Part shown: positions 1,565 through 2,196 of the stretch, piece after piece
How the letters are laid out: the number at the start of each line of letters is the position of its first letter
How positions within the stretch are numbered: position 1 is the first letter of the stretch
Virus record (IMG/VR): IMGVR_UViG_2671180849_000023
Origin: a virus
Lineage: Duplodnaviria > Heunggongvirae > Uroviricota > Caudoviricetes
Reading direction: 5' to 3' (one strand)
Length of the DNA: 8,248 nucleotides
Program-made: the position numbers and the translations under genes
Notes under the pieces: generated by a model
Told to the model about the DNA's origin: nothing
Seen by the model: only the letters and a program-made list of their open reading frames with translations
Database searches by the model: none

Positions 1565-1610
1565 TAAGTCACCTGTTTTGTGTTGTGGTGAGAATATCAC
1601 CTTTCATCAG

Positions 1611-1636
1611 GTGGCCAAATTTAGTGTGCCACTACA
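1611..1636. repeat. IS right terminal inverted repeat
   Basis: Reverse complement is tgtagtggcacactaaatttggccac; pairs with 379..404. Confidence 0.7.
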
Positions 1637-2196
1637 TCCGCCTGTTATCGGCACTGTTGCCGCCCGGTCCGGCGTGGTCAGCCAGCGATCCGGCGATTGC
1701 CGGTGCGGCACCGTCATTAACCCGTGTTCATCAGCGTGCGGATGCCCTGATGCGGGAGCTGGATCCGCGCACCACCACCGAACTGATAAACCGCTGGGAG
1801 CGTCTGTGCGGCCTGCCGGATGAATGTATTCCCGCAGGGACACAGACCCTTCGCCAGCGTCAGCAACGGCTGGATGCGAAGGTTAACCTGGCGGGCGGCA
1901 TCAACGAGGATTTTTATCTTGCACAGCTTGCTGCCCTGGGCAGACCAGATGCCACCATCACGCGATACGACAAAAGCACCTTCACCTGCTCATCGGCCTG
2001 TACTGACGCGGTGAATGCGCCGGAATGGCGGTATTACTGGCAGGTCAACATGCCAGCTGCCACCAACACCACCTGGATGACATGTGGTGATCCCTGTGAT
2101 TCCGCACTGCGTATCTGGGGCGACACCGTTGTCGAGTGTGTGCTTAACAAACTCTGCCCTTCGCATACCTACGTAATTTTTAAATATCCGGAGTAA
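1637..2196 (+). pseudogene. Phage baseplate/tail protein gene (P2 gpI / Mu gp48 / E. coli YmfQ-like), 5'-truncated by the IS
   Basis: The track ORF 1585..2196 starts at a GTG inside the IS right end; native sequence begins at 1637 with …[13 protein letters not shown]…, which I recall as near the N-terminus of this protein family, so only about 10 codons seem missing. The gene sits immediately upstream of the tail-fibre gene, as gpI does before gpH in P2. Confidence 0.55.

Follow-up and report, generated by a model that had tools for sequence, protein, structure and literature searches.

Insertion sequences (ISs) of the IS3 family can switch on the genes beside which they land, and how promoter elements are arranged in IS911-type ends is already well described. 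IS911 carries an outward-directed -35 element in its right terminal inverted repeat (IRR) and a -10 element in its left terminal inverted repeat (IRL), and promoters fused to neighboring genes arise from the outward -35 of IRR (reviewed in PMC9330008). Well-known cases are the IS2 hybrid promoters of ampC and acrEF, in which the outward -35 of IRR is combined with a -10 in the flank (PMC9330008, its Table 1), and one IS3-family member is confirmed to carry an outward promoter in complete form (PMC9330008). In other IS families, antisense promoters of the Pout type are known close to IRL (IS10, IS30, IS200, and IS1999). Here, we analyzed an 8,248-nucleotide (nt) stretch of Escherichia coli chromosome (IMG/VR record IMGVR_UViG_2671180849_000023; hereafter the window, numbered from its first letter), in which an IS911-like element abuts ymfQ, a baseplate gene of a Mu-like prophage remnant, and an open reading frame (ORF) runs from the IS into the gene. 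The resemblance to the IS2 cases is that an IS3-family end lies directly upstream of an outward-reading gene. The differences are that the end adjoining the gene is IRL, that the window has no usable -35/-10 pair, and that the IS sits within the coding region instead of upstream of it. We regard the chimeric ORF not as an expression device but as something that the IS junction produced incidentally in a prophage undergoing decay; in this reading, the IS contributes no outward promoter and the ORF is silent or nearly so (probability of roughly 0.78).

The chimeric ORF opens on the plus strand with a GTG at 1585 and closes with a TAA (2194 to 2196), giving 203 amino acids (aa) in the ORF listing of the window. 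The nearest in-frame stop 5' of this GTG is a TGA at 1537, and GTG 1588, GTG 1624, TTG 1657, and ATG 1750 are further in-frame starts. At its maximal length, the product would comprise 16 IS-only residues followed by YmfQ residues 8 to 194; codons 1 to 17 are wholly IS encoded, and the first base of codon 18 also comes from the IS. An initial annotation, made from the window sequence, had described this 203-aa frame as free of stops across the boundary at 1636/1637, with its first 17 codons derived from the IS and an IS-borne start for a baseplate-family gene. The ORF listing, a frame check, and the end of the IS at 1636 bore this out, and the Prokaryotic Genome Annotation Pipeline (PGAP) calls such a chimeric coding sequence (CDS) in three complete genomes. 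Some details needed correction. GTG 1585 is indeed IS borne but lies outside the terminal repeat (1611 to 1636), in the leader of 72 nt that separates this repeat from the ATG of orfA, and the "right" end to which it had been assigned is right in window coordinates but is the left end, IRL, in the orientation of the IS itself. Likewise, the "truncated baseplate-like gene" is a Gp48/YmfQ homologue, but it has lost only residues 1 to 7 of 194 and keeps its Pfam domain.

An open frame across the IS tip is no more than chance would provide. In random sequence of matching composition, 17 codons in a row escape a stop with a probability of about 0.41. Frames 0 and 2 of the outward frames through the IRL tip are open and contain start codons, and frame 1 is closed; in random sequence of the same composition, about 50% of frames are likewise open with a start. 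Because two of the three outward frames are open with a GTG or TTG, an in-frame fusion at this end is likely, and the chance expectation for one is about 0.5 to 0.67.

The orientation of the IS determines which promoter elements face ymfQ. Since orfA starts beside it, the end adjoining ymfQ is IRL. The ends of the 1,258-bp element could be fixed because it is base-for-base identical to two copies in the CD45 genome; they carry imperfect terminal inverted repeats (379 to 404 and 1611 to 1636) that are 78% complementary. The transposase is identical to WP_085968792.1, has HTH_Tnp_1 (orfA) and rve (orfB) domains in Pfam, and is labeled "IS3 family transposase, programmed frameshift" by PGAP. With IS911, the element shares a length of about 1.25 kb, TG...CA tips, an orfA and orfB joined via an A6G -1 frameshift, and an outward TTGACC hexamer close to the IRR tip. 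The 72-nt leader from IRL to the orfA ATG matches that of IS911A in K-12, and the conserved IRL block, TTTGGCCACCTGA...AGGTGATAT(T/G)CTCACC, contains the inward -35 and -10. The OrfA proteins of the window IS and K-12 IS911A (InsN) are 56% identical, and the left ends are about 80% identical over the first 75 nt. The tips differ, reading TGTAGTGG in the window IS and TGAAGTGG in IS911, and K-12 IS911A has GTA where the window IS has GTG 1624. By these features, the element is best placed as a relative of IS911 within the IS3 family.

We looked for promoters with a consensus scan of positions 300 to 2300 and with our own sigma-70 weight-matrix scan. The consensus scan yielded 0 sites on either strand of that interval. 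The weight-matrix scan recovered, as internal controls, both the inward promoter of the IS and the TTGACC of IRR. The inward site (Table 1), which would serve orfA, lies in a block conserved in K-12 IS911A. Read outward, the IRR tip ends in ...CTTGACCACTACA, and its TTGACC (390 to 385, minus strand) stands 6 nt from the tip, with its outward direction leading left, away from ymfQ. On the ymfQ side, the tip reads ...TTTAGTGTGCCACTACA, has no -35-like hexamer, and carries GTGCCA at the position equivalent to TTGACC. The divided layout of the IS911 junction promoter (outward -35 in IRR, -10 in IRL) therefore appears, from the sequence, to be present, with its -35 at the far end.

Near the IRL end, the best outward candidates scored 2.5 to 2.7 bits in the weight-matrix scan, which is the noise level. 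One of them, GTCACC-16-GAGAAT, reached 2.7 bits. A hybrid candidate that pairs TTTAGT (1620) in the IS with TGTTAT (1648) in the flank at a spacing of 17 nt reached 2.6 bits and has no A at position 2 of its -10, where that base is essential. Transcription from this hybrid would begin at about 1655, 3' of both GTG 1585 and GTG 1624, with TTG 1657 and ATG 1750 as the next starts; a hybrid promoter therefore could not produce the chimeric N terminus. The initial annotation had suggested that ymfQ and the fiber genes may be expressed from an IS-borne outward or hybrid promoter and had named, as a check, a search of the IS end for a -35-like element that could pair with a downstream -10. The sequence does not support an outward IS-borne promoter at the ymfQ end: the adjoining end is IRL with its inward promoter, the outward -35 is found in the far tip, and the best hybrid is noise. 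We also set aside the best plus-strand match inside the IS, TTAAGA-16-TAATAT (1282 to 1309; 7.4 bits), which coincides with the A/T-rich frameshift motif and precedes GTG 1585 by 275 nt; it was not taken as evidence because a few dozen such scores are expected per window.

With regard to translation, GTG 1624 appears to be a more plausible start than GTG 1585. GTG 1624 is preceded by an AGGTGG (Table 1) with a predicted pairing energy of -7.7 kcal/mol with the 3' end of 16S rRNA, close to the -7.9 kcal/mol of the native ymfQ ATG. GTG 1585 lacks a Shine-Dalgarno element, and 75% of window positions pair at least as well as its -1.7 kcal/mol. The IRL-proximal sequence conserved with IS911A includes the complement of AGGTGG, and this conservation presumably serves the IS's own purposes. 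The GTG 1624 start is not conserved in the IS group, since the K-12 IS911A codon there is GTA. In all predicted folds of the plus-strand RNA, AGGUGG is base paired with an upstream CACCU; the folds around the starts are no more stable than those of shuffled controls (z of -0.03 to -1.4), and this pairing is weak evidence.

Existing annotation follows the same start. The RefSeq chimera (WP_024234338.1) consists of MCH followed by Y8 to E194 and is annotated as a complete "YmfQ family protein"; the PGAP CDS at 5244 to 5816 of the CD45 locus L001 corresponds to window positions 1624 to 2196. This 190-aa form is found on 98 contigs and is present in public collections from several sources, and an exact look-up of the 203-aa form in about 15 billion protein sequences returned no record. 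The exact IS-ymfQ junction is present in 3 of 5,426 complete genomes (CD45, 602687, and PS1Thumoskin9). Gene callers accept the fusion as a complete CDS because only seven native codons are missing. The fusion CDS is thus already known through its RefSeq annotation, and IS-gene fusion ORFs are commonplace.

The identity of the gene downstream of the junction is clear from several searches. The ymfQ product matched Pfam PF10076 (Phage_Mu_Gp48; DUF2313) with 93.9 bits against a cutoff of 37.4, covering profile positions 3 to 149 of 150; it also matched phrog_203, "baseplate wedge subunit" (E = 1.3e-81), and PDB entry 9ki1, "Baseplate protein gp48" (E = 1.9e-10). An uninterrupted homologue in strain NWU_1 has 194 aa and begins MDVTNDDYIRLL. 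Only its residues MDVTNDD (1 to 7 of 194) are replaced in the window, where the NWU_1 sequence is rejoined at Y8-I9 and the whole Pfam Gp48 domain is retained. Megablast matches to IS-free genomes begin at 1633. The TACA at 1633 to 1636 fits both the IS tip and the gene, so the boundary can be placed only to within 4 nt, and the fusion restores Tyr8 and Ile9. We considered TACA as a meaningful microhomology and rejected it, a 4-nt match being too short to argue from.

In NWU_1, the locus reads tape measure, DNA circularization protein, baseplate assembly proteins, V, gp46, J/gp47, and ymfQ, followed 3' of ymfQ by the fiber genes, pinE, two hypothetical genes, and ssrA. As NWU_1 has the Mu-type tail module complete at this locus, the window represents the distal remnant of a prophage at ssrA. 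In NWU_1, ymfQ stands directly after the gp47/J-like gene and before a tail fiber gene, and the window keeps only the downstream half of this arrangement. Because the native ymfQ and the baseplate J gene share 10 nt, translation of ymfQ is probably coupled to that of J.

The junction also looks unlike a simple insertion, which for IS3-family elements leaves a target-site duplication of 3 to 4 bp. The copy at ymfQ has no such duplication, with ACA (window) or CAC (CD45) on the left and TCC on the right, which would fit a product of deletion or recombination instead. The left flank was examined in CD45, where a truncated ypjA/ehaD gene stands before the IS and ymfQ. No match showed this IS within an otherwise intact prophage, where the original target duplication would have been visible; three complete genomes carry the junction, and CD45, the one whose left flank was read, is of the deletion type.

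A second chimera made by the same IS offers a useful comparison. In CD45, an identical copy lies in ycdU after codon 19 and is flanked by a clean 3-bp ACA target duplication. The IS, the IRL end, and the frame are those of the ymfQ chimera, with 17 IS codons standing in for 19 native ones. This copy differs in being a simple insertion, and PGAP starts the chimeric ycdU (L003:5585-6568) at the distal, IS-borne GTG equivalent to 1585, in the same frame, and not at the equivalent of 1624. Where the same IS cuts deeply into genes (tssF, pcoS, and a DMSO reductase subunit), PGAP calls pseudogenes missing the N terminus. Set against these pseudogenes, ycdU indicates that a "chimeric start" mainly reflects the loss of few codons at an IS end with two open frames.

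In the history that we favor, a Mu-like prophage would have resided beside ssrA, and an IS911-like element would then have been placed at codon 8 of ymfQ. The sequence to the left of the IS, from the tape measure to the gp47/J baseplate genes, was probably lost by IS-associated deletion or recombination, which would leave an orphan module of ymfQ', tail fiber genes, an invertible segment, and pin. Expression would require read-through from upstream, antisense across the 1.26-kb IS, with the protein made from GTG 1624, and a chimera deprived of the rest of the baseplate would have no evident role. We thus expect the remnant to be transcriptionally silent or subject to weak read-through. Several points weigh against this account. 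Silence is predicted here from sequence data only; sequence-based promoter prediction is weak evidence, and Pout-type promoters at IRL exist in other IS families. The Shine-Dalgarno-like element of GTG 1624 is about as strong as the native one (-7.7 versus -7.9 kcal/mol), so translation would be possible given a transcript. Neither the chimeric ORF nor any of the downstream fiber, assembly, and pin genes is disrupted, and 98 contigs carry the junction, a pattern that fits a recent origin but is compatible with retention too.

Among the alternatives, transcripts from 5' of the IS could run antisense through it into ymfQ' and yield, from the GTG 1624 start, a low level of the 190-aa chimera and perhaps of the fiber proteins. 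No strong terminator stands in the way of such read-through, which is therefore possible: within the IS, the plus strand has a single weak terminator-like hairpin (945 to 961), and the ycdU/malonyltransferase-fragment region (window) or ypjA' (CD45) lies on the same strand and reads into the IS. Promoter-like sites at 151 to 179 (8.6 bits) and 369 to 397 (8.0 bits) on the plus strand could feed it, and the AGGTGG at -7.7 kcal/mol could serve its translation. Yet some 1.2 kb of the antisense RNA would be untranslated, since the ycdU stub stops at 381 to 383, and untranslated antisense RNA is a good substrate for Rho-dependent termination. Transcription would probably also collide with that from the inward IRL promoter, all predicted folds pair AGGUGG with CACCU, and the upstream context in the window is perhaps an assembly join; on balance, we consider such read-through expression unlikely. 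We give much less credence to the idea that the IS end drives the chimeric ymfQ and the fiber operon through an outward or hybrid promoter. IS3-family elements can activate neighbors through an outward -35, one member has complete outward promoters (PMC9330008), and Pout lies near IRL in IS10, IS30, and IS200. In the window, however, the outward -35 is in IRR, at the far end (390 to 385), and faces away; the IRL tip has GTGCCA in its place, the consensus scan found 0 sites, the best outward scores are 2.7 and 2.6 bits, and the hybrid would start transcription 3' of GTG 1585 and GTG 1624, which contradicts a chimeric start. An equally far-fetched idea is that the IRL end might act as a portable translation initiation cassette, having AGGTGG plus a GTG 13 nt from the tip, a GTG at -52, and two of three frames open. 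If so, insertions in first codons (ymfQ and ycdU in the same lineage) would leave genes translatable, and a cryptic Pout-like promoter or read-through could keep the orphan Gp48, fiber, and Pin module expressed, such that it might complement another Mu-like prophage or a tailocin.

A separate question is whether the two flanks of the IS belong together. To the left of the IS, the window retains codons 1 to 19 of ycdU, along with the end of a pseudogene for ACP S-malonyltransferase. In CD45, 602687, and PS1Thumoskin9, this left flank and the ymfQ flank adjoin two different, inverted, identical IS copies; in CD45, these copies are about 2.1 Mb apart, and no base distinguishes them from each other or from the window IS (100% identity). 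The full arrangement of the window was found in 0 of 5,426 complete genomes, the best matches starting at 376, and its source therefore has either an IS-IS inversion or a misjoined assembly. Comparison of the window IS with both CD45 copies was uninformative about a recombination crossover, all three being identical. That the join is an assembly artifact across the repeated IS, with the IS-ymfQ junction itself still genuine, is a tentative but serious alternative. The separate loci and opposite orientation of the flanks in three related complete genomes, the complete identity of the IS copies, and the absence of the combination from the complete genomes all speak for it, but recombination between inverted identical IS copies causes real chromosomal inversions, as is generally known (PMC9330008).

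Table 1. Features of the 8,248-nt window (coordinates in window positions).
Feature	Position	Strand	Remarks
ycdU 5' stub, 19 native codons	321..383	+	TAG stop 381-383 inside IS tip
IS3-family, IS911-like insertion sequence, 1258 bp	379..1636	-	TG...CA tips, inverted repeats, domains
IRR, right terminal inverted repeat	379..404	-	Holds outward -35 hexamer TTGACC at 390..385
orfB, DDE (rve) catalytic part	387..1133	-	Mechanical ORF bounds; real OrfAB fusion begins at orfA
orfA	1253..1564	-	ATG at 1564
Slippery motif A AAA AAG, programmed -1 frameshift orfA to orfB	1304..1298	-	Sequence motif
Inward promoter-like site for orfA, TTGGCC-16-TGaTATTCT	1618..1591	-	Weight-matrix 9.57, 99.99th percentile of window
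Shine-Dalgarno-like AGGTGG	1609..1614	+	9 nt upstream of GTG 1624
IRL, left terminal inverted repeat, abuts ymfQ	1611..1636	-	72 nt upstream of orfA ATG
Chimeric ymfQ CDS as in RefSeq, 190 aa, GTG start	1624..2196	+	WP_024234338.1, begins MCH-YIRLL...
TACA common to IS tip and native ymfQ (GAT TAC ATC)	1633..1636	.	4-nt boundary ambiguity
Native ymfQ sequence	1637..2196	+	Phage_Mu_Gp48 family baseplate wedge subunit
Tail fiber gene, constant N-terminal part plus currently expressed variable C-terminal part	2200..2943	+	
Perfect 36-nt inverted repeat arms bounding invertible fiber segment	2468..2503, 4421-4456	.	
Tail fiber assembly protein	2946..3389	+	
Alternative tail fiber assembly gene	3361-3966	-	Inverted orientation
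Alternative fiber C-terminal cassette	3963-4475	-	Inverted orientation
pinE-type serine invertase	4502..5056	+	
ORF, 70 aa, between pin and ssrA	5255-5467	+	
ORF, 114 aa, between pin and ssrA	5552-5896	-	
ORF, 343 aa, between pin and ssrA	5948-6979	-	
ssrA (tmRNA), tag peptide ANDENYALAA	7189-7551	-	Flanks prophage remnant
smpB	7766-8248	-	

The biological weight of the chimeric ORF is small, as IS junctions of this kind in decaying prophages are textbook material, and we see only two mildly useful points in it, an annotation caveat and a possible large inversion. The caveat is that an IS-encoded start can turn a disrupted gene into a "complete" YmfQ or YcdU when few codons are replaced, and deeper truncations are flagged as pseudogenes; users of WP_024234338.1 and WP_029794967.1 should be cautious about the IS-derived N termini. 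The rule that IS3 ends make promoters holds for a specific end, IRR, and the identity of the end is worth checking before the rule is invoked.

The remnant resembles part of e14, the cryptic prophage of E. coli K-12. Both have a YmfQ/Gp48 gene, an invertible fiber/assembly cassette, and a Pin invertase in the same order, both are orphan fragments of a Mu-type tail module, and PGAP uses the names ymfQ, tfaE, and pinE here. The e14 genes concerned are ymfQ, stfP, tfaP, tfaE, stfE, and pinE. The window remnant differs from e14 in lying at ssrA, in being bounded by an IS that replaces the first seven ymfQ codons, and in that intact versions of its prophage persist in other strains.

The Mu-like-tailed prophage sits at the tmRNA locus (Table 1). 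Its invertible segment is of the Pin type, spans 1.99 kb, and has its repeat arms inside the two alternative tail fiber genes, which encode the same short peptide stretch there; a cluster of substitutions between the window and CD45 (4436 to 4456) falls inside one of these arms. The three conserved ORFs between pin and ssrA had no Pfam or PADLOC match; the intact prophage has them as well as the remnant, and they may represent moron (cargo) genes.

At the other edge of the window, the annotated start of native ycdU is an unusual one, an ATA (321 to 323; L004:1821) that overlaps the end of the malonyltransferase pseudogene. The N terminus of that ACP S-malonyltransferase is truncated by a different IS3-family element ("IS3-like element"; L003:2753-3915 and L004:253-1415), which lies just upstream of the left edge of the window in IS-free and IS-carrying strains. 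The ycdU neighborhood is a hotspot for ISs.

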